Of a stretch of 64,000 bases of DNA, positions 43,051 to 64,000 are shown piece by piece (the stretch's first letter is position 1; each line of letters starts with the position of its first letter). Source of the stretch: Desulfobacteraceae bacterium Eth-SRB2 (GTDB taxonomy: Bacteria; Desulfobacterota; Desulfobacteria; Desulfobacterales; UBA11574). The DNA lies in assembly GCA_004193595.1 (NCBI GenBank), contig RPGQ01000024.1, positions 16,017-80,016 of the forward strand, written 5' to 3'. The notes below the pieces were generated by a model. The model saw only the letters and a list, made by a program, of their open reading frames with translations, was not told the DNA's origin and made no database searches. Position numbers and translations under genes: made by a program.

Positions 43051-43071
43051 GATTTCTCCTCCCCTTTTCCT

Positions 43072-43383: not shown

Positions 43384-43407
43384 TTCTTAGCAATTATAGC
43401 TGTGGTC

Positions 43408-44166: not shown

Positions 44167-44171
44167 AAACC

Positions 44172-44311
44172 GATCAAGTTAGTTCGCTGAGTTTATGCTG
44201 AGAAACGAAGTGCTCACAATTGGAATGTCCGAGTTAAAAATATAAGTCTAAAAAATACCTTTATTTCCAATAAATTGTAAAATTTTCGAGATGTTTAATT
44301 AACATCGAGTT
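44172..44311. repeat. intergenic repeat family 3, short copy
   Basis: Homologous to the ends of 21835-22140. Lies immediately 5' of the radC start, just as the long copy lies 5' of the rsmG start. Confidence 0.5.
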
Positions 44312-45329
44312 CGTTTTTAAGATCGCGGGTCATCAGCCGGTGTACGGCCTCTTTGGGAGAAACATCGTTATAAAGAATATGGTATACTTCGTGGGAAATC
44401 GGCATGTCAACACCAAGCCTGCGTGACAGGTTATAAACCGACTTGGCTGTTTTGACGCCCTCTGCAACCATTCGCATTTCGGACAGGATATCCCTGAGCT
44501 TCATGCCCCCCCCTATCTTTTTTCCCACGGTATGGTTCCTGCTAACATTTCCGGTACAGGTCAGCACCAGGTCCCCGACGCCGGCGATCCCGGCAAAAGT
44601 ACGCGGGTCGGCGCCAAGCTTTAATCCCAGCCGACGCATTTCTGTCAGCCCCCTGGTAATCAGTGCCGCTCTTGTATTTAAACCCAGCCCTAGACCATCC
44701 ATAATCCCGGCGGCTATGGCAATAACATTTTTTACAGCGCCTCCCAGCTCAAGACCGATCATGTCATTGTTTGTATAAACCCTGAAATACGGAGTTGCAA
44801 ATAGCTGCTGAATATAGCCTGCTATTTTTTGGTCTTTTGATCCCACAGCGATAACGGTGGGAAATTTATTCGCTACCTCCCGCGCAAAACTCGGGCCTGA
44901 AAGAACTGCAAAAAAGTTTTCGGCAATTTCAGGGAGGGTCTCTTTGAGCACACCGGACATGGTCAAATGGGTTTTGTTCTCGATACCTTTGGAAGCCGAC
45001 ACAATAATCGTCCCGGGCGAAATATGTCCGCTAATTTTTTGAGCCGTCTCCCTCATAACATGGGACGGAACAACAATCAGTACAAGATCTTTTTTTAATA
45101 CCACTTCGGAAATATCGTTGGAAGGAAAAATATTTGCAGAAAGTTTAAAACCGGGAAGAAAAACTTTGTTTTCCCTGTATTCTTGGATCTGTTCTTTTAC
45201 TTCCTTTTCAAATACCCAGAAATCGACTTTAAAACCTTTTAAAGCCAAAAGATCGGCAAGAGCCGTACCCCAGCTTCCGGCACCCACAACACCGATCTTT
45301 ACGGCACTGACATCTATTTGATTTTTCAC
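44295..45329 (-). CDS. gpsA: NAD(P)H-dependent glycerol-3-phosphate dehydrogenase
   Basis: IGVVGAGSWGTALA Rossmann motif. GTG start. Confidence 0.88.
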   Translation of the reverse strand: MKNQIDVSAVKIGVVGAGSWGTALADLLALKGFKVDFWVFEKEVKEQIQEYRENKVFLPGFKLSANIFPSNDISEVVLKKDLVLIVVPSHVMRETAQKISGHISPGTIIVSASKGIENKTHLTMSGVLKETLPEIAENFFAVLSGPSFAREVANKFPTVIAVGSKDQKIAGYIQQLFATPYFRVYTNNDMIGLELGGAVKNVIAIAAGIMDGLGLGLNTRAALITRGLTEMRRLGLKLGADPRTFAGIAGVGDLVLTCTGNVSRNHTVGKKIGGGMKLRDILSEMRMVAEGVKTAKSVYNLSRRLGVDMPISHEVYHILYNDVSPKEAVHRLMTRDLKNELDVN

Positions 45330-45357
45330 TGGCTAATCACCTCAACTATAAATGATC

Positions 45358-45590
45358 GTATCCGTTCACGGGTTCAGGGTTCAACGTTCAGGGTTAAGGA
45401 CAAAAAAGCAATGAAGATCCGAAGTCCTCGTTACAAATGTTCATTTTTCCAAGTATTTGCCAATTTGGCTTCAAATTTTGGATTAGGCCTAACGAAACTG
45501 ACGCTTTTCTCGTAAATACGCATCCCAAATGTAGCCCGTGGACGAGAATGGAACCTTGAACCCCTGAACCTTTGAACCGTGAACGGTTAC
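45358..45590. mobile_element. MITE family 1, copy B (233 bp) at the 3' end of gyrA
   Basis: TIRs GTATCCGTTCACGG...CCGTGAACGGTTAC. 8-bp TSD AAATGATC on both sides. The gyrA TAA stop (45587-45589) lies within the terminal GGTTAC. Confidence 0.78.
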
Positions 45591-48022
45591 AAATGATCTT
45601 CCTTTTCCGCGAGCCGTGCAACACCGGCAACTTTTTCTTCGGGTGACAGCCCGATAAGCGTTACCCCCTGGGTGTTACGGCTGATCACAGAAATTTGGCT
45701 CACCGACATTCGTATCAGTTTTCCTGTATCGGCCATTAACATCAGGTCGTCGTCGTCATCAACCAACAGTATTGCCACGACCTGTCCGTTTCGCTTACTT
45801 GTCTTAATGGTAATGACACCCTTGCCCCCGCGTCTCTGGAGAGGATACTCATCAATTGAAGTTCTTTTCCCGTACCCGTTTTCCGTTGCCGCAAACAGGG
45901 TCTGGCCATGGCTTAGAACCTCCATGCCAACAATTCGGTCCCCTTTGGCAACCCTCAATCCGTGAACGCCCCTTGAGACACGGCCGCTCGGTCGAACGTC
46001 GGACTCGTGAAAGCGTATGGATTTGCCCGTGGCAGAACCTAAAAAGATATTCCGGGTCCCGTCTGTTATCCTTGCTGCAATCAATTCGTCACCCGGAACC
46101 AAGCTTAAAGCGATGATACCGCCGGATCTGGGTCTGGAAAACGCCATAAGATCCGTCTTTTTGACCAGTCCGTTTCGGGTTGCCATAATGATATAATACC
46201 CCGGCTCAAATACCGAGACATCAAGCACGGTAGTAAGTTTCTCATCCTTTCCCAGGTTAAGAAGATTAACGATTGCTTTTCCTCGGCTCATGCGGCCGGC
46301 CTGGGGAATATCGTACACTTTGCACCAGTAAACCCTTCCCTGGTTTGTAAAAAATAGAAACGTATGGTGGGTGGACGCCACAAAGAGATTCGCAATAAAA
46401 TCTTCATCCTTAACTCCCATGGCTGTCTTTCCTTTGCCACCGCGCTGCTGTTTCCGGTAAAGGGTAATGGGATTCCGTTTTATATAACCGCTTTTTGAAA
46501 TGGTGACAACCATGTCCTCTTCAACAATCATATCCTCAATGGTTATCTCTTTTGTTGATTCAACAATCTCAGTCCGTCGCTCATCACCATACTCTTGCTG
46601 TATTTGTGTAAGCTCGTCCTTGATAATATTTTTCACAAGACGCTCACTGCCTAAAATCTCTTTGTACCAGGCAATATCCTTGAGAGTATTCTTGTATTCT
46701 TCCAGAATTTTTTCCTGCTCCAAACCGGTAAGCCGCTGCAGACGCATATCCAGGATGGCCTGGGCCTGTATCACCGTCAGGTCGTATGTCCGAACCAGCC
46801 CTTTTTTGGCCTCGTCCGGCGATTTGGATTGGCGAATCAGAGATACGACATCATCAAGATTTTCAAGGGCGATTTTTAAGCCTTCCAGGATATGGGCCCG
46901 CGCTTCAGCCTTTTTCAGGTCATATCGGGTCCGGCGGATAATAATCTCCCTGCGGTGAAGAATGAAATGCTCAAGAATCTTTTTCAAAGAGAGTTGTTGG
47001 GGCTGGTTGTTCACAATGGCAAGAAAAATGATGCCGAAGCTGTTTTCCATCCGCGTGTGCTTGAAAAGCTGATTAATGATCACCTCCGCAAACTGATCTT
47101 TTTTCAGCCCCACCGCGATCCGCATACCTTCCCGGTCCGACTCATCCCTTATATATCGTACCCCTTCGACCTGCTTTTTTCTTATCAGGTCCGCAATTTT
47201 TTCGATAAGTTTTGCCTTGTTCACCTGATAAGGAAGCTCCGTGACAACGATTGTCTCTCTTCCTGTCCTTTTGTCTTTTTCGATCACGGCTCTCGCCCTG
47301 ATTCGGATGATGCCCCGACCGGTTGTATATGCGTCATAAATTCCTTTGGTGCCGTAAATAATACCGGCAGTGGGAAAGTCAGGGCCCGGGATATAAGCCA
47401 AAAGGTCTTGAGATGTTAGATCAGGATCATCTATGACTGCCTTTGTGGCTTCAATGACTTCAAAAAGATTATGAGGCGGGATGTTGGTGGCCATACCAAC
47501 GGCGATACCCGAAGAACCGTTTATTAAGAGGTTGGGGGCTTTGGCCGGAAGTACACAAGGCTCTGTCAAAGAATCATCATAATTCGGCACAAACTCAACG
47601 GTTTCCTTATCCAGGTCCTCCATCATCTCATGAGCCAAACGCATCATTCTGACTTCAGTATACCTCATTGCAGCCGGAGGGTCGCCATCCACGGAACCAA
47701 AATTGCCCTGGCCGTCTACAAGAGGATACCGTAAAGAAAAATCCTGGGCCATCCGTACAATGGTATCATAAACCGCAGTATCACCATGGGGATGATATTT
47801 ACCGATAACATCACCGACGATGCGGGCGGATTTTTTATACGCTTTGTTATAATCGTTTTTAAGCTCTCGCATTGCAAAGAGTATGCGTCTGTGGACGGGT
47901 TTCAGGCCGTCGCGCACTTCCGGGAGTGCTCTCCCGATGATGACACTCATGGCATAATCGAGATACGACTTTTTCATCTCGCTCTCGATACTGATCTGAG
48001 CCAACTTTTCTGTATTCAACAT
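45587..48022 (-). CDS. gyrA: DNA gyrase subunit A
   Basis: [29 protein letters not shown]. Active-site Tyr region and C-terminal beta-pinwheel repeats. 811 aa. Confidence 0.93.
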
Positions 48023-48177
48023 ATTAAACCACCCGCCTGAACCTTGAACCTTTGAACCCTATACGGTTAAGGGTTAGTATTTTTGTAAGTGTTCACAGAT
48101 TTTTTAAAATCACAAATTACAAGCACCAAATTTCAAATAAATTCCAAATGCCAATAACCTAAACTATTTCTATTTTT

Positions 48178-48411
48178 GTATCCGTTCACGGGTTCAGGGT
48201 TCAACGTTCAGGGTTAAGGACAAAAAAAGCAATGAAGATCCGAAGTCCTCGTTACAAATGTTCATTTTTCCAAGTATTTGCCAATTTGGCTTCAAATTTT
48301 GGATTAGGCCTAACAAAACTGACGCTTTTCTCGTAAATACGCATCCCAAATGTAGCCCGTGGACGAGAATGGAACCTTGAACCCCTGAACCTTTGAACCG
48401 TGAACGGTTAC
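48178..48411. mobile_element. MITE family 1, copy C (234 bp), 156 bp upstream of gyrA
   Basis: Same orientation as copy B and over 98% identical to it. 8-bp TSD CTATTTTT. Confidence 0.78.
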
Positions 48412-48577
48412 CTATTTTTTTAGTATTGATGAAAATATTTTTTTCAATTCGTTTGCTTTTCTTCAAGATCATAAGGTTTCGAATTTTGAATTTCGGTCAT
48501 TGTGATTTGTTTGTTTTTTGGGATTTGTTATTTGGAATTTCCACAAAATCAACTACTCCATGAACCGTTACTATTTT

Positions 48578-49669
48578 TCAATCCTTACAGTTTTTAATGC
48601 TTACGGGATCAACCAGTTGTTGATAACTGGTATAATAAATATCGGTTAATGTTAAAAAAGCAGTGGCAACCAGAGGGCCGTAAATAATACCCAGGATTCC
48701 GAACATCTTCAATCCCCCGATAATAGATAGAAAAACAAGGAGCGTATGCATTTTAACCCGTTTACCCACCAGTTTTGGTTTTAACAAATATTCAATTCCA
48801 CCGGAAAGTATAATGTAAAAAACAACAAAAAATATCCCTGATGCAATCCGCATTTTTAAAAATAGATATAGAGCCGCGGGAATAAATACAACTCCGATTC
48901 CTATGATGGGAAGAAACGCGAGCAGGGCCATTATAACCCCCCATAAAAACGGTGAATTAAAACCAAAAAGAAAAAAAACGATGCCTCCTGCCACACCCTG
49001 AATCAGACCGCAAAAGCCATTGCCGATAAGAACAGCACCGGCCATGTCCTTAAATTTTTGAATCAGTTTTTCATCCTGTTCCTTTGGCAGCGGAGAAAGA
49101 TCGATGATAAACGCAACAAGTTTGTCCCCGTCAAATAAAAGATAATAGATAATAAGGAGCATAAAAAAGAAATATAGAAAAAAATTGAGTACATTCGAGG
49201 CAATAGAACTGGCCTGCTGAAATAGAAAGAGGCCGACGAATTTTCCGAGTTCTGAAACCGCCTTATTTAATTCTTCACCGGTTATTTCCATATTTAAACT
49301 AGAAAGGACAAGGTTTACTCTTTCAAGAACCCTGCTGCTTTCAAGCAGCGGCTTGATTTGGTCGCTGATTACCCCGCCTTTTCCCATAAGATACAGAGCG
49401 TACGCCTCTTTTGACAAAATGCCTACAAAAAAAACGGTCGGGATAAACAGGATAAAAAATATTAAAGCGCAGGTTAGCAGCGATGCAAGAATAGAATTAA
49501 ATTTTCTGTTTAAAAAATTATAAACCGGTTTAAAAATGCCGGTTACAACAGCGGCAAGAACAATAACAGACATAAAGGGCCAGAAAAGCCGGCCAAGAAA
49601 AAAAGCTGACAAAAGAAAAAGGGCCAAAAAAAACCACAAAATATTATTATGGGACGTTCTATCCGGCAT
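48578..49669 (-). CDS. AI-2E family (UPF0118/PerM-like) transporter
   Basis: Eight hydrophobic segments and conserved LIGNGFCGLIQGVAGG. Confidence 0.78.
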   Translation of the reverse strand: MPDRTSHNNILWFFLALFLLSAFFLGRLFWPFMSVIVLAAVVTGIFKPVYNFLNRKFNSILASLLTCALIFFILFIPTVFFVGILSKEAYALYLMGKGGVISDQIKPLLESSRVLERVNLVLSSLNMEITGEELNKAVSELGKFVGLFLFQQASSIASNVLNFFLYFFFMLLIIYYLLFDGDKLVAFIIDLSPLPKEQDEKLIQKFKDMAGAVLIGNGFCGLIQGVAGGIVFFLFGFNSPFLWGVIMALLAFLPIIGIGVVFIPAALYLFLKMRIASGIFFVVFYIILSGGIEYLLKPKLVGKRVKMHTLLVFLSIIGGLKMFGILGIIYGPLVATAFLTLTDIYYTSYQQLVDPVSIKNCKD

Positions 49670-49850
49670 AATACTCCAACTAAAAACGACGTTTTGTTAT
49701 CACAGGCTATATTGTTCCTACTTCAGGGAACCGGCCGACCTTGAAGTTCATTGGCGACAATAAGATCAACAGCATCCCCTTTCCTAATTAATAATGGAGA
49801 TGATGTTATTATAATCGAGAAAGATATCGTGTAAAATGAGGGAAGGTGTT

Positions 49851-50006
49851 TTACTTACTCGCAAATCCTCCAGCCACAAATAAAAGAAGGGTTTCATAAA
49901 CGAAAACCGGAACATAGCTATCACATAAACCATATACAATACCGCCGCCTATGATGGCCGGCACAGCACAAACAACCAAAATACCCAATCTTCTGCTGAT
50001 GTTCAT
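49851..50006 (-). CDS. small hydrophobic protein (51 aa), hypothetical
   Basis: Not in the ORF track (below 60 aa). MNISRRLGILVVCAVPAIIGGGIVYGL... AAAGGAG RBS 7 nt upstream. Confidence 0.4.
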   Translation of the reverse strand: MNISRRLGILVVCAVPAIIGGGIVYGLCDSYVPVFVYETLLLFVAGGFASK

Positions 50007-50296
50007 CTGTGTTAATCTCCTTTAAGTGTAAACATTTCTCGAAACGCCTTTTACTCAAAATTGATGAGGTTTAAAAAGCAATAACTTGATAATATTAGTT
50101 TTTTCTCTTTTTAGTACGGCGAAGCCGCATGATATAGAATCGCGCAATCATTGTATAATTTGTAACAATAACATTTAATTAAGTAAAGGAAAAACAGACA
50201 AACCTGTTTATTTTTTGTATAGTCATAAAGGTTTGACGATCCTGGTTTTTTTTAATAACATATAAAGAATTTTATGGTCAAAGGTCTCGAGACAAA

Positions 50297-51079
50297 ATGT
50301 GCCTGATTGTATTTTCCTACGATATGCATCCCCGTTACCGGTTGATACTTGCCGCTAACCGGGACGAAGATTACAACCGTCCGACAGCGCCGCTTTCTTT
50401 TTGGGATGACGCGCCAGGCATTTTTGCCGGCCGTGATTTAAAGCATAATGGAATGTGGCTTGGGGTTTCCCGGACAGGACGAATTGCCGCCATCACTAAT
50501 TTCAGAGAACCTGATTTTCGGATTGCAAATGCCCCTTCCCGTGGTTTTCTGGTGGGCGATTTTCTGGTCTCAAAACAATCTGCCAAAAATTATATAGAAC
50601 ACGTTAAAACTATGGGGCACAGATTCAATGGGTTTAATCTTTTTGTCGGAGACAGGTCCGAGCTATTTTATTATTCCAACAGGGGAAACAGCATTAAGAA
50701 AATAAAACCCGGCTTATACGGTGTGAGCAATCGATTTCTTGACACGCCATGGCCCAAGGTGGTTAAAGGAAAGGCTGATCTTAAAAAACTGCTTGATAAG
50801 ACTGAAAAAATAGACTCTGAAAACATATTCGGTATTCTGAAAGACAGCTCTTATCCACCGGACAACGCGCTACCGGACACCGGCATCGGCCTCACTTGGG
50901 AACGGATTCTTTCCCCCTTGTTTATCACAAGCAGATTTTACGGAACACGCTCATCTTCAATCGTTTTGATAGAACGCTCAGATAGAATAACCTTTTTAGA
51001 ACGGACATTTATTTCAGATGGCGCTGTATCCAGAGAGGAGAAAACCCGAAAATTCACCTTTGATATAAAATCGCAATAA
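50297..51079 (+). CDS. NRDE-family protein (DUF833/TANGO2-like)
   Basis: N-terminal MCLIVF...LAANRDE signature. Confidence 0.8.
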   Translation: MCLIVFSYDMHPRYRLILAANRDEDYNRPTAPLSFWDDAPGIFAGRDLKHNGMWLGVSRTGRIAAITNFREPDFRIANAPSRGFLVGDFLVSKQSAKNYIEHVKTMGHRFNGFNLFVGDRSELFYYSNRGNSIKKIKPGLYGVSNRFLDTPWPKVVKGKADLKKLLDKTEKIDSENIFGILKDSSYPPDNALPDTGIGLTWERILSPLFITSRFYGTRSSSIVLIERSDRITFLERTFISDGAVSREEKTRKFTFDIKSQ

Positions 51080-51256
51080 ATTATGGCGCCGGGTTAATAT
51101 GATTATTTAATACACCAAAACTTATTGAGAAGTTACCCTCTGATATGATATAGTATAGAAAATTTGAGGAAAAGCCTTGACAAACAGACCATAGCTGCTT
51201 AGTTTTTTTTATAAAAATGTTCTTTCTCATCTTTTTACCCCAAACAATCTCTTTGT

Positions 51257-51620
51257 GGGGGCGAAACGGCTTCGACGGGGATAAAGAAGCATCGGCTGCA
51301 TGCCAAGCTCCTGCCGGCTTGTAAAAAAGGCGGGAAACTTAAAGTAATCGCAGACGATTATAATTACGCTTTAGCCGCTTAAGGCTAACGTCCTACCGGA
51401 TTATTCCTGCGCATCCGGCAAGGGCGTCGACAAGCAGGATAGCCGGTCCCGATATCCCGTTAACGGATCGGTCCTGCAGGCGGCTTTTGCGAAGGTTATG
51501 GGTTTCAGGCGATTGCGTCCGCACTCTTTTATCATCTATCTTGTTATCGTTTTCGGAGATCAGGTATTGCATTTCAATACAAAACAAGCCTTCCAGTAAA
51601 GGCGGAGTTTGATCAAAACA
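51257..51620 (+). ncRNA. ssrA: tmRNA-like (ssrA) sequence; 5' acceptor/TLD half and tag ORF recognisable, 3' T-arm/CCA not found
   Basis: GGGGGCGAAACGGCUUCGACGGGG 5' consensus. Tag reading frame gca gac gat tat aat tac gct tta gcc gct taa (51350-51382) encodes ADDYNYALAA*. The 3' end is approximate. Confidence 0.55.
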
Positions 51621-51639
51621 GTTTCGGCGACGAAACAAT

Positions 51640-54600
51640 ATTTATATCCTATTTGCTGGCGTGACGATATGGCAGGTTTCCGCGTAAAGTCGCTCAAACC
51701 GGTATTTCGAAGATCTACCTGATTCTTTATTTCTATTTATTTTCTATTTTTATGCGTGACATCGGCGCTGACTTGTTTTGAAAAGTTATACGCCTAAATC
51801 GGTGCTTTTGCCTCGGCAAGCCATTTTAAGATTCAGCATTGCTACGGCGAAAATCAAAATTGCGATTAGATAGTATTGATCACGGCAAATGACAACAGCC
51901 GAAAGTCGTCAGTTAACGGTGGTAAGTAATTGACCAGTCACACGACACCGGCATGCTCATCAAAATGCCCAGCCGCGAAGTACCAGCGCCGCCATATACG
52001 ATTTCGACGTCTCATCCAGCAAAATGAAATGTCATGGCCTTTGATCTGCTCCGCATGATGGCGTTTATTTTCTAGATCAGTATAAGTTAGGTGCTGGTTT
52101 GCGTACGATTTCCCCATCAATCTTAATTTAGGCAGACTCTAATCGTTTTTATACTTTATCTCGCAATAAGCTTCGTTTTAGTAACTCTTTGGGCTCTCTA
52201 CCAGTGTCGCGGAAGACTCAGTACCTTAGCTGAAAGCGCTCGCCAGACAAATAGAATGGTGCGAAAGGTTTTAGTTAAATTTTCGGTGCGTAAAGTTTCC
52301 TTTATCCATAGGTGAGCCCCAAAAGTAGCGTATGTAGTCCAACGATATGTACAGCCAGAATACAAAACCACCGATAGCGTAAGTACTGAACTCTTCCCGC
52401 TCAAACAGCAGTGATTACATTTGTCAACAACTTCAACAAGACGACCATGAAAAAGACGATCGCGTAACGATAAACACTGGCTCTGCTTTTCGCCGGACCC
52501 GACCGCAGCAGATGACCCAAATATCCGGCCCATTCAGCCCTTAACGGCGTACTAATAACATTTTAATTGAACGTTTTTTCGTGATCTAAACGTAGCGTTT
52601 CACCGTAAAAAGCGGTAATTGTATCTTTAACCAGAACCTTGATCGGGATTAATTTCTGGCTGGATTAATTCTGTTTTAGCGTTTAATCCGGCAACTCCGA
52701 CCATGAAAATCATTCTTTAATGGCAGCAGTACGTTTGAAGAACGCTTTATAAAATTGATAGGTCGCATGGTGATAGAAAAGCTTAAACTGGAAGAAAAGA
52801 AAACCGCGCGGCGATTTGTCCGAAATGAGGCGCGCAACTATCCGGTTCCTGATTTACTCGAACAATTTGATTAACCTTGATGTAAGGGGCCCAAAAAGCT
52901 TTATGCTCAACCGTTATTTGGTTGTAACATAGGATTTTGAGGCGGTTTATTTGATACCAGCAATAAAAGGAACAACCCCAGAATTTATTACAGATTTTAT
53001 TGAAAGCTGCACAATCAATGTAAAACGCTCAGCAAGTTACAAATTACTTCCAGGATTGCTGATGATTTTCGATGCCAAATCAGCCGCAATCACTATTTCT
53101 TGAGCTCGCGACCCAGGACATTGACGTGAATTAAATGAAATGATTAGCAGATATTTTGTACCAAGTTTTAAAGTGCCGGATGGAAAGCCAGCCATCGATT
53201 TTGTATAGTCAATTCCGCACCTTAGGCTTTATTTTGATCTGGTAATCGCGATTTCATCTTTGGACGTCAGCGCTTAAAGCGAACTTTTTATTGCTGAACG
53301 CGTTGAAGTTTCTGTAGTCAAATTTGATTACCTGGATTTCATATTTCTGATGGTCCCAGATTCCAATTAATCTTTTAAAGCAAAATATGCTAATCACTTC
53401 CTGTGGGAGGCACCAGTCCGCCGATCTTGATCTTTTATTGATTGGATATAATTTAATCATCAGCAATCCCGGTGCTTTCGCGGCCAGTCCGTTTTAGTCG
53501 GCGATGGAGGCATGGCGTTATGAAATCGCGTAAACAGATCCTAATCATCGCCCTTTGCAAATGAAAACCGGACTCCACTAAAAATCAGTTAATTCTAGAA
53601 TCTGTGGTGGAAACTTTAATCGAGATGCTCGGCACCCGCCTCCAGGCAAATGGCGATAGGGCGAAACCAGGTAAAGGGATTTTCGGTGTCTTTTATGTTA
53701 AAGGGCCTCATAAAGCTGCACTTCCAGCAGCAAACCGTAAACCTAAACCCACGATGTTTTGTAACTTAGTTATGTCGCATCTTCTTTTTCGGCGCGGCGG
53801 TAAGGAATTGAAAAACGGGTGGATAATCAAAACTCGAAAATGGATGAAAAAGAGACACCAGTCGAAGTTTCATCTGGATCTGGTGTTCTGACGAATCTTT
53901 GTATCGCGGGATAAACTTAACAACCTGAAAACCGGCTGGAAGCGCATTAATTCCAGGCGTATGCGCCAAAATGATACGATCTCTCGGAGGCTCAAATAAA
54001 TTAGGTTATGCTCAGTTCTGGAAATCGATTCATAGTGCGCGACGCCGCTAAACCGACATCGTACTAAAACGCCACCGAAAGCAACGGCGAACCATTGCAT
54101 GTGGAAAATGAAATGACAGCTGAATCTGGAAAAGAACCTGCGCAGGCGATTAAATAAGAAAATTAAGGCGTTTTGCTGAAAGTTGATAGAGACCGATTGT
54201 CATGGTCGGTGTTTGAGAGGCGTCAGGCAAAACTGCTGGCGGCAAAAACCGACCAAAACCTACTCACTTAAATAAAACCCACCAACGCGTCGACGCCGCC
54301 CTTCGGGATTATAAAATAAGCAAAAGTGGCGTTTTGATGTTTTACACTCGATGAAAGACGATCGTCAGAAGAAAATATATTGATAATGTTAAGATTTTGA
54401 AATTAGCTTTCAGGAAAATTAAACTGCTTCGGGATTTTGGCGTAATGGAAGGCATATGCGCGGCTTAATTTGTTCACCATCGGTTTATTTCTGACTCTTT
54501 CGTGGAGCCGCCGGCTTCCTCCCTGGTTTTTAGATCATAATAATTTAAACTGTAACTCCATAAAATAAAACCCGCCTTGATGGTGCAACCATACACCAGC

Positions 54601-57600
54601 CCGATCTCGATCCATTACGCCCCGCTATATACACCCCAAAACCCTAAATGGGCGAACCAGCAATCCAAGCATTATCACAGCAGGAATATGGACTATCTGG
54701 ATGAAATCACAAAATAATATCACCATGGCTTTTATCCGCGCTTGGAAAGGGCGAAGATGCAATTCAAGGACGTCGAAGAACGCCCCACCAGCACCACAAG
54801 TCTCCGAATTCTGCGACTGATATTATTTGAGAATCCATGACCAGTTGCTGCTATTCCAATAATGGCGATTGATGGCGGAAAACAGATATTTTATGACGGC
54901 TCCATTACCGATCCCCTCTGTAATCGTTTATCCCCCGAATAATCATCCAGGAGAAGCCATATTTTCGTTCAGCAGTCTGTTTCATCCCCAGTGGCAACAT
55001 TTGCGGCGGAAAACGGTCAGTGGTATTGGGAATTGTATTAGTTTTTCGGATTAACATCAACGGAAATGAGATGAAGCTCGGGGAAAGGGTGACAGGTAAA
55101 TCCCAATTTGTAAATTATTATGATTGGGTGGAAACCAGCGTGCAATCGTAATTCAAAAGGAAGACCTAAAACCAGTTGCCACGACCGCGAAAATCATTCG
55201 CCAACCTGTGGAAATGGAGCCGGATGGATTTTCTATCCTTTTTTCAAGAATAAAGTCGCTTTCCTACGCACTTTAAATCTTTCAAAAGCGCTATGAAATA
55301 GGAGTATTAGGAATGATTATATTTGGCGTCGGCCATATTCATTCAAAATATAAGCAAGCCTTTACATTGTTTAACGATGCTGCCGCGCTTATCTCTGTTT
55401 TGCCGGGGCGGTATCTATGGTACGGTATGTTGAAAGAAAGTGCTGAGTTTCGATGGCGAAACACGGCTCTGAGACCGACGAAATGGATTACGAAGGGCAA
55501 CCGCATTTGATGAAATTTTAACTCAGGTTAATACTGGTTCTTTGACCTCCAGGGTCATTTGTTAAATGCCGCCAAAACGAAGGTTGAGGAATGGTTTCTA
55601 CCCCATTGCCAAAACTGGAAGTGTATTTGCTAGTAAGATATCCATTACTTTGTCGGAATTATTACGTCTCCGACACTGCATGGAGGATTCTTCGCAATGG
55701 CGTAAGCGGAAATGGGCTTAACTATCCTGTTTTTACGGAGAACAATCTCTAAGATCGTACATTTACAGGCGACAACTGTTCGGCTATTGCTGATGGAAAT
55801 TAATAGAAATATCTGCCTTCGGTCTTATCTTCAAGGGCGTATTGGTCCTGTGGGATGGCCAAACCAATAGCCCAAAACTGCGTTAGAGCCCCATCATTGC
55901 GTTGACCGCGATAAAACCGACGGGGCCGAACGCACGGGAAAACCAAACTGGCGATGACTGTTGAACGTTCCCATCGGTTAAAAGGAGATCCGCGAGGTAC
56001 TGCTTGTTTCTTTCAAAATCACACGGCGCGTCAGGCCTCCAGGGATTACGCTATGCGTAACATTCAAACAATGGGCGAAGATCGGTCGATCGTTAAGAAA
56101 GCCATGTTAGAAAACCCTATACCGCCTTTGGCAACCGATATTCTTTTGGGTAGATCGGTTTTTATTCACAGTGGCGACCAAAATGCCATGTTCCGAAGCT
56201 CGAAAATTCCTGAGAATTACAAACAGTTTGAAGGCGACACCCGATGCGCCTGTTACCAACCGGCCGACAGTTTGTTCGGTCACTCCCTATAACCTTCCTG
56301 ATATCAGTGCTTTGTGGTACCCTTGGATTTTGAATCAAGATATCATTGAGTATGCCGCTTTACCGGCATCGATTACTTCAGTTGATAATCGGATTGTTTA
56401 TCGCGAGGTTGATTTTGAAACGGAAGACATAGACGAATTTCAAGAAAACTATAAAGCGGCTCCATTCCTGCAAAGCGTTTATCACGTCTTTTGTGGCAAA
56501 ACCAAATTATTTAGGTGCCAGGGTAAAATTAATTGACAGGTAAATATTCCAAACATAATCTAAAAAATCGGTCTCGCCAAAGCCGATAGATTGGGTGCAG
56601 AAACAACTCCTGTAGATATTTCGCCGGGTTTCGGAAGGTTAGCCGAAACGCCCGTTACCGAGCAACAAGGTAATGGCGCGCGATCACTGAGTGGGGCCCG
56701 GGATGGGTAAAACAAACGATTTTCGATACGCTGTCTCTTAAAGTTTCTTTTTCCAAACTTCCTATTAATATATTGCTGGCTGCTCCGACCGGAAGAGCTG
56801 CAAAACGAATGAATGAAACAACCGGGCATGAAGCAAAAACAATCCGGCTTAAGAATTTGCTTCGAGTATAGCATTCGGTATGGCGGATTCCCGAAAACGA
56901 TGAACAACCTTCGGATTTCGGTTATGATTTATTTCGATTAATCGATGAAGTTATCGACGTCCTGACGCATTAATTTTTAAAGTGCTTATCCTGTAGCCAG
57001 CTGACTCTTCTCCTTGTTGGAGATGTGAACCAGCTCCCTTCCTGTCAAAGCTGGAAATGTATTAAAGATATTATCCGTCTCGTACCGGTGGCAGGAGCCT
57101 AACGAAAATATTCCGGCTCGTGGCTGAAGATGAAATCGAGAATAACCAACAATTCCATAAAGTACCATTAAATTTGCGCTCGTATTCCTTCATTTCAGAC
57201 TCTGCTGTGACATGGATTCTTTTATTTTATCTCAGTGCGAAGCCGATCCGGAAGACGCATTGATGGATTATTTTAGAACTTGCTAAGGATCGTATGTACT
57301 CCGACAGTGATTCGGATTTGGATCCTTTGATGACATTATTGTGATTTCCTTGACACTCTATACCGTGCCAGATCAAAGTCTGCTTTCTAAACTCAAACGC
57401 CATCGAACCAAAACCAAAATCCCGGTGTAGGCTGGCGTATGCAACATTAGGGTAACAGAAATTTCAGAGTCAACGACAAGGTCATGCAGATCAAGAATAA
57501 TTATGATTGCCGATATTCTTTAATCGATATCGGAATGAATTTCCAGAATAAACTGAAGGAGTGGTCGGTGATCATCAATATCTGACGGAGTCGACCCGTT

Positions 57601-60600
57601 GAATATGACTATACAGACCTGGATTGAAAATTGTCCCGGCATTATGGCGTTTCCAGTCTGAGCAGTCGCATGATCTGGAATATCCTGGCTGTGGATTATC
57701 CCTGATTTTGTAATTCTTTACTACTACTTCGGTGCCATTGATGGATTTTGGTTGCAATGGAATTTTGATTTATACAGCTGTTTACCAAGAGGCTCTGCTT
57801 TCGGTTTGTCTGCGGGTTTGGGAAATCAAAGAAAGAATTGCGTATGATCTATGTCAGGGAATCGATAAAACCCGGTTTCATTGATACGCAACTGTTATAC
57901 GCCTGAACCTCATGAATGTAATTGATTTAAGATTTGCTTATTTAATTATAATGACTCCCTGAATCCATAGTCGAAATCAGATCGGGTAACAGCTTAAATT
58001 CCAAAAAAATAGGAGCCTCCATACGCCAAAGAACAAGCCTGGTGATGACTCACCAAAGTCAGTGAGATTAACATCTGTAACCCTGACTCAAAATCCACCC
58101 CTGGCTCTACCAAAAACGGCTTCATGACCACAAATTATATGCAAACCTTCCTAGAAAACAAAGCGTCCCCGAACTGGAAGCAGCCACGCCCCACCAGCCG
58201 TAGTTCCTGCACCAGAAGCGTTAAAGCGTTATTGAAGTCCAGCCAGTGAGAACCCGGCCACAACCGGCAAAGCGGTGATGGTTTACGCCCTACCTGCGCC
58301 TGTTACGGCGTCATGAATTTGTTCAGGCGGAAACTTCCTCGGCAGCGGATCAAATTAAAATTTAGGCGAAAAAGAGCAGAGCAACCGTCCAAACCCAATG
58401 GCCCAGAATATTTCTATTGCCCCGGTTTTCGTACGAACGTTTATGGTTTGGAATGCGTCCAAAATCCGGGTAATGTAAAAAGAACTGCCGCAGCTTCTGA
58501 AATTAGTATGGCCGTTCCCGAAAGATCCGCGATGATAGTGTAGAGGGTGGTCTAACTGTGCTTTCCATAGGTGTTCCACCGCGGCACCGCATCGTTAACC
58601 CTCGCCATCCCGAGCCAGCAGGTGCCGTAGCAGCAACGTTTGCAGAAACGCAACAGATATTTGTAACTTCTGGCGCTCCGCTGATCAAAAACAAGATGCG
58701 CGGCTGGATCGGCTCCATGCTTTAATCGATGACTTTGCAAGTGGGATTTTATCTGGATTCTGTTAGAGATCGTCAAGAGGTAAGGGTCATCTGAAACCGC
58801 TTCCCTTAAAAATTGCTGATGGTCGCCCAAATCAGCAAAACAACCTGAAGAAACAAACAGGAACTTTTTTTCATTTTCGAGGACATGGCGCCTGGTTCTT
58901 GTCCCCTGTTTGCAAGGCAGCCGGCATAAGTACTGGAGAGCTTCCTTCGATTTTGTTGAACTTGCGCTTTCGCATTATTTCCTGTAATGAACGGTAAATT
59001 ATGGCGTTCAGCGCTTTATTTCGCTATGGGCAAAGCGAAGTTTAAAGCCGCTCACGCCGTATGCCTCTATGCGGATTGAAACGACAGTCAGGCTCCTGAA
59101 CAGATGGTTTGCATATGAATAGCAAACATCGCCAGTCCCCGTACTGAAGAGGCGTACAAGCAATATGCGCTGACAGTTAATCGTATTAGTCAGACCTAAT
59201 CTCGGCGACGTCTTTGTGAAATATTTTGCAAAAAATACTCCGATGAAAGCGCCATTTCAGCGTTCAAATCCTGGAAGATCTGGCTTGAATCAACGCCGGG
59301 CGGAATAGGCTGAAAGTATGCCTGGTAACGGCAAAATCAGCCTTCCGGATAGCGTTTATTAGCGCTTTAAGTTCCGCCTATCAAAGTCCGCAAGAGAACG
59401 TTAACAATTGAACCTGCGCTATTTGCGGAGATTATCTTGAAAAGATCCTGGGTAATTGAAATTTTGGCGCGTTTATGGCATCACTTCACTGCGGCTGGCT
59501 TCAGAGGGATGGGGCGTATGAATTGGCGGCGATGCGATGCAATATTCACCAAGACCGCTATGAGTGCGGCGGAAACTCCTGGATATCGCGGCGGACGAGG
59601 TAAAGCAGATTTATCGATCGTAATACGGATAAATCCTCCTGGGGATTTCGTTCGTGGTATGATTTTATCCTCGGTCGTCATTTCTGGATTTCTAAGAGAA
59701 CATGGTGTTGATCGAATGGCTTTCCTCAAACCATTCATCCCTTTGCCTTGGCCTAATTCCTGTATTTCTGTTTTTCTAGAATCCTCCGACTACCTTAACG
59801 AAGTCGAAAGTGAAAACATCTTAGAAAGCCGAACCTCAAAAGAAACATTCCAAAGCCTATCCTGGTATGTCTCAAATTTTTTTCCCCATCCTAATTCTAT
59901 TTCACCCCTAATCATCTTTTCATTAAATTTTTTTTCGATGACCGAGATATATTTAAATTAGAGAGTTCGTAAATGGCATTTCTTGAAGCACGAGTTTTTT
60001 GTTGATCAAGACAAAAGTCGGTTAAAGAGTTTCTTGGTTTCTATTTTTAAACGCAAGGCAGGCATGATATGGCGTAAAAATCCGGTCGAAACAGTGCCGA
60101 GCAGCCAGCATGAATGTACTTTTCGGGATTTCCGTAATGGAATACTGGGGAAATTCCTGGAGGTGTCTGAAAGTGGATGCGATTGCGTTGAGAAGGTTTT
60201 GAATCTGATTTTAAATAAACTGCTGATATAAAGGGCGTGGTAAAATATCCCGACGCGATCCCGATTCTGTATTTCTTGGTGTTCTATAAACTCAGGTTCT
60301 GTGGTAATTATTTCCCAGCTCTACATCGTTTCGATATATAATATTAATAACATTATTATATATTTTATCATATACTTCCATATTGAAATCCAAAACACCC
60401 TGGCACTCTGGATTTTAAAGTTCCATCGAAATTCTATCTACCTACCTGTCCGCGACATTTATTATGATTCATAGGCGGTGACAAAAGAATTGTGGTACCG
60501 ACAGATGCGGGTTTCTCCCTGCGGCGGCGCAACCGGCGAAAATGTCCGATGCAGAAAATGTCCGATGGAAAATTCGAAGGATCACCCTTAGTGCTATGCT

Positions 60601-61290
60601 CATGGATGATAAATGACAAACGCCCATCCTGCGTCCATGATTCGGCAATGATTTTTTATCAGGATTTTTAACCATCCGGCTCATCAGTCATGGAAACAAT
60701 CTTGCCGGTTTATTTCATTATCTTTATAGGAAAATCTCGTTGTCAGAAAACTCTCAAAGTTCCTACCGCCACCTAGATAAGTTCTTGAATTATGCCCTTT
60801 ATATCCGGAAACCGAAATCTGTTTCACAAGGCGCAACCGAGGGCGGCTTAAGCGGCGAGGCAATTAATTAATAGCCGAGGAGGCGTTTCTATCCTTTGGA
60901 AATATTAATCCATTGTGGTCATTTTGCAACTCCTGCTTCGGAGTGAAACGACCGATGATCCAGCGAACCTGCGAAATGCAGGCGAGGATCTTTGGGAGAA
61001 TCGAAACGTTATCGAAAACAGCCCAGTCGGGCAACGAGACAGCGTTCCGTCGAATCTGATCAGGTAAAGCGCCAACCGGGGCACGGTTTGGTATTACTGT
61101 AAGTTTACGACGTTCTGCGACAAAACCCAGTCCTTTTCGAATCCGGTGGGCGGTGCCTTCGCAGGATCTAACCTGCCACCACTAAGGCCGGTGGAGGGCG
61201 GCGGTTTCAACCCAAGCGTCCTTCGTGGAACATTCCTGCGTGACGGGCGTTCCGGCGACATTACTATTATCCTGAAAATTTCTAATTTCG
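51640..61290. other. about 9.7-kb ORF-poor segment of decayed (or artefactual) sequence
   Basis: No ORF above 174 codons in any frame. Overlapping short ORFs in three frames. Protein-motif remnants interrupted by stops. k-mer texture differs from 1-51 kb. Confidence 0.6.
56650..57110 (+). pseudogene. RecD/TraA-like SF1B helicase remnants
   Basis: Translation fragments WGPGMGKTN (Walker A, 56692-), PINILLAAPTGRAAKRMNETTGHEAKTIRLKNLL (motif Ia, 56761-), DLFRLIDEVIDV (motif II-like, 56926-), VGDVNQLPS..W.CIKDI (motif III, 57016-). Stops and frameshifts separate them. Confidence 0.5.
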
Positions 61291-61299
61291 CCTTCCTGC

Positions 61300-61598
61300 A
61301 AGTCCTTCCCAGGCATGATGCGTTTCGATAGGTCATCCCGCAAGGCCGATTCTACCGGATCCGTTTAACGCGGATTATCGACCGGCTTATCCTGTGTTTG
61401 TCGATCGCCCTTGCTGGATGCGCAGGAATTAATCCGGTAGGACGTTAGGCCTTGTTTTGCCTGTAAAGGCGTAATTATTTAATCGTCTGCGATTACTTTA
61501 AGCCCGCCTTTTACAAGCCTGCAGGGAGCTCGGCATGCAGCTGATGCTTTATCCCCAGGTCAGTCGTTTCGCCCCTACTAAAGAGATTGTTCTGTGAT
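61300..61598 (-). pseudogene. second, degenerate tmRNA-like copy (inverted)
   Basis: Reverse complement begins GGGGCGAAACGACUGACCUGGGGAUAAAG... and aligns to 51257-51560 at roughly 75-80% identity. The tag frame is destroyed (gca gac gat taa). Confidence 0.45.
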
Positions 61599-61609
61599 GA
61601 GGAAAGAAC

Positions 61610-62700
61610 TGATATTTCATAAACTGCCCATTGGCTAGTTTCTTCCTCTGCACCTCTTTCTATACTATATCATATCAGGAGGGTAAACTTTCACCAAGTT
61701 TTGGGTGTATTTTCAAATTTAATCATATTAACCTGGCGCCATAATTTATTGCGATTTTATATCAGCGGTGAATTTTCGGGTTCTTTCTCCTTCTCTTGGA
61801 TTGGGAAGTCAATTCAAAACAAACCGTTCCGCAGTACGTCATCTCCATCCGACAGTTCCACAAACGATTGAAGATGAGCAGTCCTCTAAATCTGCTTTGG
61901 CGTGATTAAATCAAGGGGAAAGAATCCGTTCCTAAGCGGAGGCCGATGCTGGTGTGTCCGTAGAAGCAAGGTTTGTCCGGTGGATAAGAGCCTGTTCCTT
62001 TCTCTTAGAATAATTCCTGAATGATGTTCTCTTCTAGAGTCTATTTTTCTTCAGTCTTATCAAGCAGTTTTTAAGATCAAAGCCCTTCCTTCAAACTAAT
62101 CTTGGGCCGTTTTAAGTGCGTCACAGGCAACTCTGATTTGCTCGGCCTTTCACCCTCCGTGTCACTCTGAATTTGTTTCCTGTTTTTGGAATTAAATAAA
62201 ACAGCTCGGACCTGTCCTCCTGACCAAAGCTGATTTAAAAACCCCATTTAACGCTGCGCCCAGCGCTTCCAACGGAAACGATAATTTTGGTAGATTTTGT
62301 TTCGATGACCTTGTAATCGCCCCACCATGAAAACTCATTTTGGTATGTGCGATCGGCAGAACCGAAATCATAGTCCCGAAATTTTAGGTGATGGCGCAAT
62401 TCGTCCTGTCTCGTAGCAAAACCTCGCTTCACATTCCCATTATAAGCGGCGAAATCACGGGGTCAAAATGTTCTGGCGCGTCTTCATCCTAAAAAGAGCT
62501 TTACGTTTGTCGGATTTGTTGGTAATTCCTTCGTCCTGTCGGTGAAGCAAAAGAATCCTGCGAAACGACGTTAACGAGGAATACGTCCAGCAACACGAAG
62601 TCCGGATGACAATCTTCTTTAACGTTAAAATTCGCCAGTATGTTATTAAAACCAAGATCAAACCTTTATGACTTTTATAGTTGCGCGGCAATGGTAAACA
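61610..62700 (-). pseudogene. degraded inverted copy of the NRDE-family gene (plus its 3' flank)
   Basis: Nucleotide homology to 50940-51250 (e.g. gagaaggagaaagaacccgaaaattcac cgctgatataaaatcgcaataaattatggcgcc). Peptide remnants LLLHRQDE (compare ILAANRDE) and FSWWGDY (compare SFWDDAPG). Confidence 0.45.
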
Positions 62701-62976
62701 GTATTCGTCTGTTTTCCTTTTACTTTAATTTTTGGTACCGTTATTTAGCGCATACTTTATCAGGCATTTTTGCAAAAATCAAGGCTTTTTTATTGTAATT
62801 TTAAGCATAATACGCCAAAATGTCCCCAAATTGAGTGATTTTACAGCAACACATACTTTATCAAAAATTGCCGGCTAAAACCAATGCCGCTAACAGTAAG
62901 GCTTTCTTACAATCCAACCGTTATTTGCTATCATAGCTTTTTCCCCTGCCTCTTTTACTCATAACTGACGGTAATG

Positions 62977-63453
62977 CTATTTAATGGGGCCACTGGGATT
63001 GGTGGGCCAGTAAAACGGATCGTATTTCCCCTTATTATCCTTAGAATCTTCTGGTTTCTTTTCCGGGGTCGTGGATTTTTCTTCTGATTTTGATTGTCCG
63101 AGAGCCTCGGTCTTTTTCTCAGGAATTTCAATTATAGAATCTTTGTAAAGACTCATTTGAAGAGATTTTTCGGGCAGGATAACAATCTCTTTTTCCGTTT
63201 CTTTAACCCGCAGCACATGAGTTCCGGGCGCTACTTCCTTTAAAATTACCGGCGTTTTTCCAATATTAATGCCGTCTAAAAGAACATCGATCTCAGGGGG
63301 CTCACTGAATACCGACAGTCGTCCCATAGGTTTTTGTTGGCCTTCCAGCGTTCGAGATGGCTCGATCAACTCGGCGAACACAGATAAAGGTTGCATGATC
63401 AAGAAAACGAAACCAAAACCAAAAAGGACCATTAGTTTAATATTTATTTTCAT
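62977..63453 (-). CDS. secreted PEGA domain protein
   Basis: Signal peptide MKINIKLMVLFGFGFVFLIMQPLSVFA. PEGA-like DVLLDGINIGKTPVILKEVAPGTHVLRV. AGGGAG RBS. Confidence 0.68.
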   Translation of the reverse strand: MKINIKLMVLFGFGFVFLIMQPLSVFAELIEPSRTLEGQQKPMGRLSVFSEPPEIDVLLDGINIGKTPVILKEVAPGTHVLRVKETEKEIVILPEKSLQMSLYKDSIIEIPEKKTEALGQSKSEEKSTTPEKKPEDSKDNKGKYDPFYWPTNPSGPIK

Positions 63454-63492
63454 TTCTTATCTCCCTGATCGTATAGACATATTCCTGTTGAT

Positions 63493-63816
63493 TCAGATTA
63501 ACACCCGTTGACGCATGGTTTCCCTTATGTTACGACAACCGTCTATAATGCCGTGAATGATAACCACTTTGCCGACAATCTGATAGATTATTCGAAAATT
63601 TTTAATGACAATTTGACGGCATAACATTTCGCTGAAACCTTCAAGTTCAGATGGGACGTGGCCACGCTCAGGGTTATGTGACAAGCTGTCACAAGCCTGC
63701 GAGAGTATCCCGTATAACCGCTTGGCCGTTTCAGGCCTTCCACCGGCCTTGATATAGCGGTAAATTTTTAAGAGGTCTTGCCTGGCTCCGGTAGTGAATT
63801 CCACGGCAAAGCTCAT
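63493..63816 (-). CDS. type II toxin, ParE/RelE family
   Basis: 107 aa. YRYIKAGG...IIYQIVGKVVIIHGIIDG fold signature. ATGA overlap with the upstream antitoxin. Confidence 0.72.
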   Translation of the reverse strand: MSFAVEFTTGARQDLLKIYRYIKAGGRPETAKRLYGILSQACDSLSHNPERGHVPSELEGFSEMLCRQIVIKNFRIIYQIVGKVVIIHGIIDGCRNIRETMRQRVLI

Positions 63817-64000
63817 TTTTTAGAGAAATCCTTTGAAATCATGTCGTCGAATTCTTTAAGCAGTTGACCGGCCGGTATGGTTTTTCCCTCTTCAAAGTCC
63901 TTTTGCCCTTGAGCAACCATTTTGAGCAAAGCCAGTGCCTCTTGAATCCTCTCGTACTCGGTGATATCCTGAATGATCGCTTTAGCTTCTCCGTGTTGGG
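63813..64000 (-). CDS. type II antitoxin (Phd/YefM or ParD-like), 5'-partial at window edge
   Basis: Translation ...AKAIIQDITEYERIQEALALLKMVAQGQKDFEEGKTIPAGQLLKEFDDMISKDFSKK*. Confidence 0.6.
   Translation of the reverse strand, partial: QHGEAKAIIQDITEYERIQEALALLKMVAQGQKDFEEGKTIPAGQLLKEFDDMISKDFSKK

Follow-up and report, generated by a model that had tools for sequence, protein, structure and literature searches.

Gene content of the locus

We analysed a window of 64,000 nucleotides from Desulfobacteraceae bacterium Eth-SRB2, and the features of its last 14 kb are collected in Table 1. A clean native block (block R), which carries the NRDE/TANGO2 gene and the beginning of the tmRNA gene ssrA, is followed by a long low-accuracy segment and then by clean sequence with genes for a PEGA-domain protein and a ParE toxin.

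Table 1. Features of the NRDE–ssrA locus and its flanks (window coordinates).
Feature	Position	Strand	Description
Clean native block R	50163..51472	+	Intergenic DNA, NRDE/TANGO2 gene, spacer, first ~216 nt of ssrA
NRDE/TANGO2 gene	50297-51079	+	Pfam PF05742, E 2e-75; protein RZB35915.1, SRB2_02713
Truncated tmRNA gene	51257..51472	+	5′ acceptor strand, tag ORF ADDYNYALAA*, PK1 to part of PK3
Low-accuracy segment	51473..62755		11,283 nt; where checkable, reverse complement of the organism's own NRDE–ssrA–downstream region
ORF inside the segment	52201-52533		Exact match to RZB35916.1
recD2 (SF1B helicase) gene, error-riddled	55538..57702	+	Six-frame Pfam: AAA_19 (E 2.8e-13), AAA_30, SH3_13
ORF inside the segment	59437-59958		Exact match to RZB35919.1
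Noisy Acetyltransf_6 fragment	60639..61023	+	blastn to L082 13971-13609: 73.9%, E 6e-52
Noisy ssrA 3′ flank, as in L082	61110..61189	-	61110-61626 aligned to L082 11513-11038
Full-length error-riddled ssrA	61190..61576	-	Aligned to L001 10428 (tmRNA 3′ end) and upstream
Error-riddled NRDE gene, many frameshifts	61746..62596	-	From the alignment to the left copy
Noisy intergenic DNA upstream of NRDE	62597..62755	-	Ends opposite native 50163
Noisy tail or native flank of the PEGA gene	62756..62976		221 nt; no similarity found
PEGA-domain protein, clean flank	62977-63453	-	Pfam PF08308; 100% identical to SRB2_02719
ParE toxin, clean flank	63493-63816	-	Pfam PF05016; SRB2_02720

Block R is 95–97% identical and syntenic to the related contigs L001 and L082 and forms the final 1310 nt of reference-grade sequence ahead of the break. 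Over longer distances, 40356-51472 aligns to L082 with 96–97% identity and 41761-51472 to L001 with 92–97%, and in all nine relatives the homology to the window breaks off at 51468-51472. This is inside ssrA, at position ~216 of 354. The 3′ 138 nt (T-arm, 3′ acceptor strand and CCA) are missing, and 51473-51700 is unrelated to the native ssrA 3′ third (z = 0.28). ARAGORN finds no tmRNA here and the Rfam score is 56.2 bits, with the T-arm and the 3′ strand of the acceptor absent, whereas each relative has a single ssrA, called by ARAGORN and scoring 175–188 bits. The left copy had been taken for the functional one, and these results show that to be wrong. The 3′ third missing from the left copy is present in the right ssrA (z = 23 against the native sequence), which scores 20.9 bits, under the Rfam gathering score of 47, and is negative in ARAGORN. 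Membership of RF00023 calls for a complete tRNA-like domain, a tag ORF, pseudoknots and a score above the gathering threshold, and both the left (56 bits) and the right copy fall short of this. As written, neither ssrA copy is a functional tmRNA gene.

The longest ORF of the low-accuracy segment does not exceed 174 aa; its longest ORFs match no Pfam family and are singleton GenBank proteins. A six-frame Pfam scan of 51473-61189 recovers RecD2 domains on the plus strand and nothing else on either strand, at a sensitivity that is low for such noise: the intact NRDE protein itself finds the noisy NRDE at E 0.006 only (tblastn). The top homologue of the recD2 remnant is P0153 (E 1e-37), and at the DNA level the remnant aligns to L095 88-2086 with 66.7% identity over 2226 columns (blastn), or 68.6% after global realignment. 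A second RecD2 homologue (L096) has no ssrA in its surrounding context. The blastn search of 51473-59400 against plasmids and phages gives a lone 74-nt match, inside the recD2 remnant. By dicodon coding potential the segment resembles shuffled DNA, but the known NRDE remnant scores likewise, which makes the test powerless. Further right, the Acetyltransf_6 block is collinear with the ssrA block, the gene it matches in the 97%-identical L082 is located downstream of ssrA, and the alignment to L082 extends 67 nt beyond the tmRNA 3′ end (L082 11446).

Sequence is accurate again by 62977: 62977-64000 forms gap-free alignments to natural contigs (81% and 97.9%). PEGA and ParE homologues elsewhere have different neighbours and are uninformative on the right junction. 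For 62756-62976, nothing similar is found in native 49670-50162 or in any related locus compared.

The NRDE, PerM and ParE proteins and the two ORFs inside the segment listed in Table 1 are exact GenBank proteins of one 94,436-bp Eth-SRB2 contig; each of the two ORFs forms a cluster of its own in a set of 15 billion proteins. As these ORFs are found unchanged among the GenBank proteins of the Eth-SRB2 MAG, the segment that contains them belongs to the deposited assembly and was not planted. The five CDS called in it (SRB2_02714-02718) are spurious. As a separate observation, a Lon-like ATPase gene at 29.1–31.5 kb of the window is broken over three frames, and this region may be a second bad patch.

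Inverted homology between the two NRDE–ssrA copies

By blastn, 50163-51472 and 61358-62743 align in inverted orientation at ~70% identity (E 5e-141). The main arm joins 61433-62743 to 51400-50163 (69.5% identity over 1371 columns, 193 of them gap columns) and a short arm joins 61358-61429 to 51469-51403 (85% identity); a repeat search of the window finds inverted arms of 22–68 nt strung on one diagonal. The inverted homology of the original prediction is thus real and far above chance. Its left and right ends are at 51472 and 61358, not at 51560 and 61300 as had been read by eye, and the divergence, first put at 20–25%, is ~28–30% per alignment column, or ~15% if ungapped positions only are counted. 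Altogether ~330 differences separate the right copy from the left (~190 substitutions and 130 indels). NRDE remnants had been traced to about 62700. The copy does reach ~62743-62755, but NRDE itself stops at 62596, followed by the DNA upstream of the gene.

The block common to both copies is exactly the last 1310 nt ahead of the 51472 break. The outer limit of the right copy faces native 50163, an unremarkable intergenic position with no biological landmark, and past this end (62755 onward) no similarity was found. This geometry fits a read overlapping the end of a contig.

Error profile of the low-accuracy segment

In the noisy segment, substitutions amount to roughly 12%, insertions to 11% and deletions to 7%. 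Indel events are at 8.8–10.5 per 100 columns in all four blocks for which a reference is available, with insertion to deletion events of 148:49 in recD2, 28:10 in the acetyltransferase block, 43:14 in ssrA and 92:40 in NRDE (counted over 1.3 kb). Insertions outnumber deletions about 3:1, and just 5–14% of the indels have a length divisible by 3, i.e. they are frame-blind. Natural comparisons of equal identity show 0.5–1.3 events per 100 columns for gyrA and ~3 per 100 for the NRDE–ssrA locus in L004; the indel density of the right copy is ~3-fold over the same locus of L004 and 7- to 20-fold over the gyrA comparisons. Of 57 single-base insertions, 32 (56%) double an adjacent base, compared with ~30% in simulated uniform noise passed through the same aligner. 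Ts/Tv is near 1 in noisy and natural comparisons alike and is uninformative as a test of naturalness. The quality border is a knife edge, at 51472/51473 on the left in all relatives. Abrupt borders, uniform frame-blind indels in genes, RNA and spacers, and stutter insertions are the properties of an uncorrected read. No SMRTbell, ONT or Illumina adapter stands above shuffled controls in the segment.

The stutter bias also bears on the idea of a computer-generated or deliberately mutated insert, which we regard as practically negligible. The lack of ORFs, the shuffled-like composition and the fuzzy reverse-complement echo of nearby context would suit such an insert. It is opposed by the exact GenBank entries, by the lineage-specific native sequence found inside the segment and missing from the rest of the window, and by the stutter-biased insertions, unlike uniform noise. 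The original prediction had named an artefact as its fallback; an artefact is supported, apparently of the sequencing or assembly type and within a deposited assembly, not a generated or planted one.

Age of the second copy

Compared with its 95%-identical relatives, mapped pairwise, the window lineage has a derived state at 21 sites; the right copy agrees with the window at 18 of these and shows the ancestral base at none. The sharing of 18/21 matches the 79% agreement of the right copy at invariant sites. Therefore, the right copy is a copy of the present-day sequence. Judged by these states, the "second copy" is a noisy rendering of that sequence, and its divergence is not evolutionary.

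On this evidence it is highly improbable that the ssrA/att region underwent a natural inverted duplication long ago and that the right copy has since decayed to a pseudogene. In favour of this reading, the inverted homology is real, and ssrA is an insertion hot spot that varies between strains of the lineage, relatives having a canonical att-type direct repeat of 24 nt. However, no ancestral state has been kept despite ~30% divergence; therefore, the left copy would have to be essentially unchanged since the "duplication", with the right copy taking all of the substitutions and indels. In addition, the indel density is excessive, insertion-biased and identical in the unrelated recD2 4 kb away, and all 11.3 kb are affected, with knife-edge borders.

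Comparison with relatives and with ssrA islands

A second or inverted NRDE–ssrA copy occurs in 0 of about 15 related contigs, and none is inverted within 10 kb; the count of ssrA loci that had been proposed as a check gives one per relative. The downstream DNA differs among relatives that are 95–97% identical, and ssrA is in this sense an insertion hot spot. In relatives the ssrA 3′ end recurs as the 24-nt direct repeat at a distance of 1.13 kb downstream, and a DUF6538 fragment of integrase type is found.

For an att site one would expect the 3′ end of ssrA to be repeated directly. Such a repeat is absent at the far end of the insert, where the sole repeat is inverted and consists of the ssrA 5′ part and NRDE, and the 138-nt ssrA 3′ third has no second copy anywhere in 51473-61100. 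Genomic islands integrated into the tmRNA gene and bounded by attL and attR have reportedly been described by Williams ("Traffic at the tmRNA gene", J Bacteriol 2003). Like them, the anomaly here begins inside ssrA. Unlike in them, the repeat is inverted and spans the 5′ two-thirds of ssrA and the upstream gene, an intact ssrA is not regenerated at the left junction (it ends at ~216 of 354), and a tyrosine or serine integrase is not detected in a scan of low sensitivity. The earlier reading of the segment as an old duplication of an ssrA-island att region is contradicted by the derived states, by the frame-blind excess of indels, and by a repeat that is inverted and takes in the upstream gene and the whole ssrA.

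Proposed origin of the segment

We suggest that the segment is probably an unpolished, misoriented patch of single-molecule reads, and that the "second copy" is the same locus written twice, the second time backwards and with ~30% errors.

Step 1: Accurate sequence ends at 51472 inside ssrA, and the next 11.3 kb are of uncorrected single-molecule read quality. A contig end at ssrA is expected, because short-read contigs of the relatives frequently stop in or just past this gene.

Step 2: The noisy stretch would be a single long read, or a consensus of very low depth, which overlaps the last 1310 nt of the contig (50163-51472) and extends past them.

Step 3: The read may have been joined whole in the wrong orientation, or may be chimeric, and short-read polishing would never have reached the patch. 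The true arrangement of the genome is then probably the ordinary one, as in all relatives: a single NRDE gene, an intact ssrA and the downstream region.

Hybrid or gap-filled assemblies can retain uncorrected long-read sequence with a misoriented or chimeric join. The segment is like such patches in its knife-edge change, in indel-dominated frame-blind errors over coding, RNA and intergenic DNA, in a length typical of one long read, in its spurious orphan CDS and in a duplicated block that is the end of the accurate contig. Also in favour, part of the native sequence (the ssrA 3′ third, the 67-nt flank and the acetyltransferase block) is found in the right copy and not in the left. It is unlike usual uncorrected reads in the ~30% error, which exceeds that of typical PacBio or Nanopore raw reads and is about twice the quoted rate, and in that no adapter is seen. 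Against the patch as the explanation, wrong joins are needed at two places, 51472/51473 and near 62755, a parent sequence was found for neither 51473-55537 nor 57703-60638, and the homologue search described below gave no accurate recD2 of this MAG that would place the correctly oriented region elsewhere in the assembly. No overlap was found between the left end of the patch and the PEGA contig.

Inverted chimeras can arise by strand switching in amplification or library preparation; those of multiple displacement amplification (MDA) have reportedly been described by Lasken and Stockwell in 2007. The segment resembles them in its forward run, followed by the reverse complement from ~10 kb downstream back through the start; however, a chimera alone leaves the high error rate unexplained. 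A fold-back palindromic read with a missed adapter was considered and rejected, as the halves 51473-56415 and 56416-61357 share no inverted similarity, the sequence that continues the left copy does not correspond to a noisy ssrA 3′ end, and the recD2 alignment crosses the would-be centre of symmetry.

One genuine read bridging a real inverted repeat would look identical to the proposed patch. It is conceivable, though unlikely, that near-identical inverted 1.3-kb copies of NRDE and the ssrA 5′ part, the product of a recent event, flank ~10 kb, and that nothing but the quality of the sequence is at fault. One poor long read would then have filled both the repeat and the DNA inside it; the truncation of the left ssrA would be genuine, and the right ssrA would be intact. 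A read with an anchor in each of the two accurate contigs yields the exact layout without a misjoin, the right copy runs on into the native 3′ end of ssrA and its flank, and identical derived states suit a very recent duplicate as well as a single locus. A clean copy of the interior is also not seen elsewhere, an accurate Eth-SRB2 MAG recD2 being absent among the best 120 homologues of the nearest natural RecD2. On the other hand, the related contigs show neither a second copy nor an inversion, the outer end of the copy has no landmark, a unique 10-kb interior should assemble from short reads, and six-frame Pfam scans, of low power here, give no mobile-element or recombinase signature. Rather improbable, too, is a form of this arrangement in which the real 1.3-kb inverted repeats flank an invertible segment of ~10 kb in which the sole ssrA 3′ third resides, sequence quality alone being artefactual. 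If true, homologous recombination would switch which 5′ copy becomes the working tmRNA gene.

Discussion

With the misoriented patch as the favoured explanation, the locus holds no new biology, and the practical value of the analysis is in database hygiene. In a public MAG contig, a stretch of 11 kb is roughly 70% accurate and probably misoriented; it interrupts the tmRNA gene and conceals recD2. One may take the patch for an old duplication, a very large non-coding region or an ssrA island, and the derived-state test together with the comparison of indel densities quickly separates such artefacts from true old paralogues. Last but not least, it adds five orphan "hypothetical proteins" to nr.

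The inverted copy and the deposited record

The inverted homology claimed in the original prediction is real. A repeat search of the window returns inverted arms of 22-68 nt, all on one diagonal, and the alignment check by sensitive blastn pairs 61433-62743 with 51400-50163 at 69.5% identity (1371 columns, 193 gap columns, E 5e-141) and 61358-61429 with 51469-51403 at 85% identity. The inverted copy comprises the NRDE gene, whose product belongs to the TANGO2 family (PF05742, Pfam), the spacer between NRDE and ssrA and the first ~216 nt of ssrA, and extends ~130 nt beyond NRDE into its upstream DNA. What is duplicated corresponds exactly to the final 1310 nt of accurate sequence. The outer end of the copy, opposite 50163, is an unremarkable intergenic position; no similarity was seen past it, and searches within the window gave 51400-64000 no further match to any other part. 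Between the inverted copy and the stop codon of the PEGA gene lie 221 nt that match none of the fetched sequences; their minus strand carries a motif resembling a sigma-70 promoter, TTGATT...TAAAGT. A stretch of ~90 nt in the spacer (51080-51160, AATAAATTATGGCGCC...GATATGATATAGTATAGAAA) occurs in both window copies, is missing from the metagenome contigs L001 and L002 and is partial in L004; the region ahead of the ssrA promoter is thus naturally polymorphic for an indel.

Retrieval via NRDE yielded Desulfobacterales MAG contigs that share the gene order of the window. Window 41761-51472 is 92-97% identical to L001, and 40356-51472 is 96-97% identical to L082, a 259-kb JGI contig. By exact-sequence look-up, NRDE (RZB35915.1), PerM and ParE are identical to GenBank proteins encoded on a single Eth-SRB2 contig of 94,436 bp. 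Two ORFs inside the anomalous segment are likewise exact entries from this contig (Table), hence the segment belongs to the public record and a planted or computer-generated origin is ruled out. SRB2_02714 and SRB2_02717 each stand alone in their cluster in a set of 15 billion proteins, and neither matches a Pfam family; SRB2_02715, 02716 and 02718 presumably share their status as ORFs called on noisy sequence. The ParE/antitoxin module at the window end is 97.9% identical to JGI contigs L089-L094, where it adjoins GIY-YIG and IS21 genes and not PEGA; these different neighbours point to a toxin-antitoxin cassette mobile between contexts.

Age of the copy

Derived sites were those at which the left copy differs from the shared base of L001, L002 and the related contig L003, and the right-copy base was scored after pairwise mapping. 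The right copy carries the window state at 18/21 of them, another base at 3/21 and the ancestral state at 0/21; its agreement at invariant sites, 79%, is in line with this. Thus, the right copy was made from present-day sequence. Since copying, the left block has stayed nearly unchanged, while the right one gained ~190 substitutions and ~130 indels in 1.3 kb. Some 500 nt of the left block are intergenic and the block also contains synonymous sites, so this asymmetry is beyond purifying selection and excludes an ancient duplication. The proposal of an ancient inverted duplication of an ssrA att region is therefore refuted.

The two ssrA copies

In relatives a complete 354-355-nt tmRNA gene directly follows NRDE, with the tag ADDYNYALAA (ARAGORN) and Rfam scores of 175-188 bits. 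In the window, ARAGORN calls no tmRNA. The match to the window ends at 51468-51472 in every relative, which is tmRNA position ~216, and the window sequence after the break is unrelated to the native ssrA 3' third (z = 0.28). The right copy, on the minus strand, does include this 3' third (z = 23) and reaches the CCA end at 61190, then runs through 67 nt of flank as in L082 down to 61110, skips 2.1 kb that L082 has, and enters a block of the L082 Acetyltransf_6 gene. The right copy thus renders the native locus completely and in collinear order. Its ssrA reaches only 20.9 bits in Rfam, due to the error load, and the intact NRDE protein finds its noisy copy at E 0.006 at best (tblastn). The left copy had been taken for the functional one; its low Rfam score, its missing T-arm and 3' acceptor strand and the negative ARAGORN result contradict this, and both ssrA copies are non-functional as written. 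The first eight bases past the breakpoint (51473-51480) are CCTGCAGG, an SbfI/PstI site, with no vector or adapter similarity around it; the octamer recurs near 61527 within the noisy ssrA copy, probably by chance.

Features of the window that bear on the inverted copy, with the insertion:deletion events of the four blocks compared with a reference
Feature	Position	Strand	Details
Lon-like ORF-poor patch	29055-31480	-	
Left copy	50163-51472	+	accurate
Left ssrA	51265-51558		56 bits (Rfam)
Noisy segment	51473-62755		
ORF	52201-52533	-	exact RZB35916.1/SRB2_02714
RecD2-type helicase domains		+	AAA_19 (E 2.8e-13), AAA_30, SH3_13
recD2 block	55538-57702	+	reference L095; 148:49
ORF	59437-59958	+	exact RZB35919.1/SRB2_02717
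Acetyltransf_6 block	60639-61023		reference L082; 73.9%, E 6e-52; 28:10
ssrA plus flank block			reference L082; 43:14
NRDE block			reference the window's left copy; 92:40
Intervening DNA	62756-62976		221 nt
PEGA protein	62977-63453		SRB2_02719, 100% identity
ParE/antitoxin module	63476-64000		

Error profile and contents of the noisy segment

Natural controls were passed through the same aligner as the four blocks. In each of the four blocks, indels occur at a rate of 8.8-10.5 events per 100 columns aligned, and only 5-14% of the indel lengths are divisible by three; natural gyrA pairs of similar identity give 0.5-1.3 events per 100 columns and the NRDE-ssrA locus of L004 ~3. In the NRDE block, where the left copy is the exact truth, 32/57 single-base insertions repeat the adjacent base, compared with ~30% in uniform-noise simulations processed identically; a simulation with substitutions at ~12%, insertions at 11% and deletions at 7% matches the observed counts. 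Ts/Tv is ~1 in noisy and natural comparisons alike and is uninformative. The profile is the same in protein gene, RNA gene and spacers, being frame-blind, insertion-biased and stutter-prone, and its borders are abrupt (51472/51473, with accurate sequence back by 62977). This is the look of uncorrected single-molecule read sequence and not of evolution, and we are confident that the divergence is technical in origin.

The segment holds no ORF >174 aa. The RecD2-type domains are the sole finding of a six-frame Pfam scan, which returns no domain on the minus strand. The nearest natural RecD2, P0153, is encoded on contig L095, to which the recD2 block aligns at 66.7% identity with 288 gap columns. 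Such remnants indicate a degraded rendering of real genes, not non-coding DNA. For 51473-55537 and 57703-60638 no parent sequence was found, and plasmid and phage searches gave no useful match. The error-riddled copy is the sole recD2 seen for this MAG.

Proposed origin

The order along the window is U - R (50163-51472, accurate) / rc(D) - rc(T) - rc(R) (noisy) / PEGA, ParE (accurate), where R is the left copy, T the ssrA 3' third and D native downstream DNA. We suggest that a single locus was probably joined to a misoriented or chimeric raw read. One long read would have overlapped the end of the accurate contig by 1.3 kb, reaching 10 kb past it. The whole read would then have been attached in reverse orientation, a chimeric read giving an equal outcome, and short-read polishing would never have reached the noisy patch. 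No adapter remnants were found in the patch. A fold-back (missed-adapter) read is excluded by the unrelated left continuation and by the recD2 alignment.

If the inverted repeat were genuine and very recent, and a single poor long read spanned it, the sequence would be identical without any misjoin, and the best 120 homologues of P0153 include no accurate RecD2 of this MAG. However, a second copy is absent from all of ~15 related contigs, and a unique 10-kb interior would be expected to assemble from short reads; we regard this repeat as unlikely. The artefact that the original prediction had allowed for is thus supported, in the form of a sequencing and assembly artefact in the deposited MAG.

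Strain variability and implications

In relatives, too, short-read contigs often break off within ssrA or shortly after it, probably because of strain-variable DNA downstream. Between L082 and the related contig L083 all similarity is gone directly past the tmRNA 3' end. In L083 (12367-12390) and L001 (11559-11582), the final 24 nt of ssrA recur as a direct repeat 1.13 kb past the gene; the ssrA end and this att-like repeat bracket an NYN-domain gene, which makes the unit a canonical att-type islet at ssrA. In L082, ssrA is followed instead by a DUF6538 fragment of integrase type.

In the second ORF-poor patch, a LonB-like AAA_32 domain is spread over all three minus-strand frames (profile positions 2-54, 55-99 and 98-133), and ORF 30293-30529 encodes an AAA_16 fragment with a Walker-A motif. 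The patch could be a further stretch of low accuracy in the same assembly, or else a pseudogene with frameshifts; the split Lon-like gene at 29.1-31.5 kb hints at a contig with more than one such stretch.

The value of the finding lies in a warning about this GenBank record and not in a real biological feature. With only an error-riddled recD2 and a broken ssrA, gene-content surveys would score both genes as missing from this organism.
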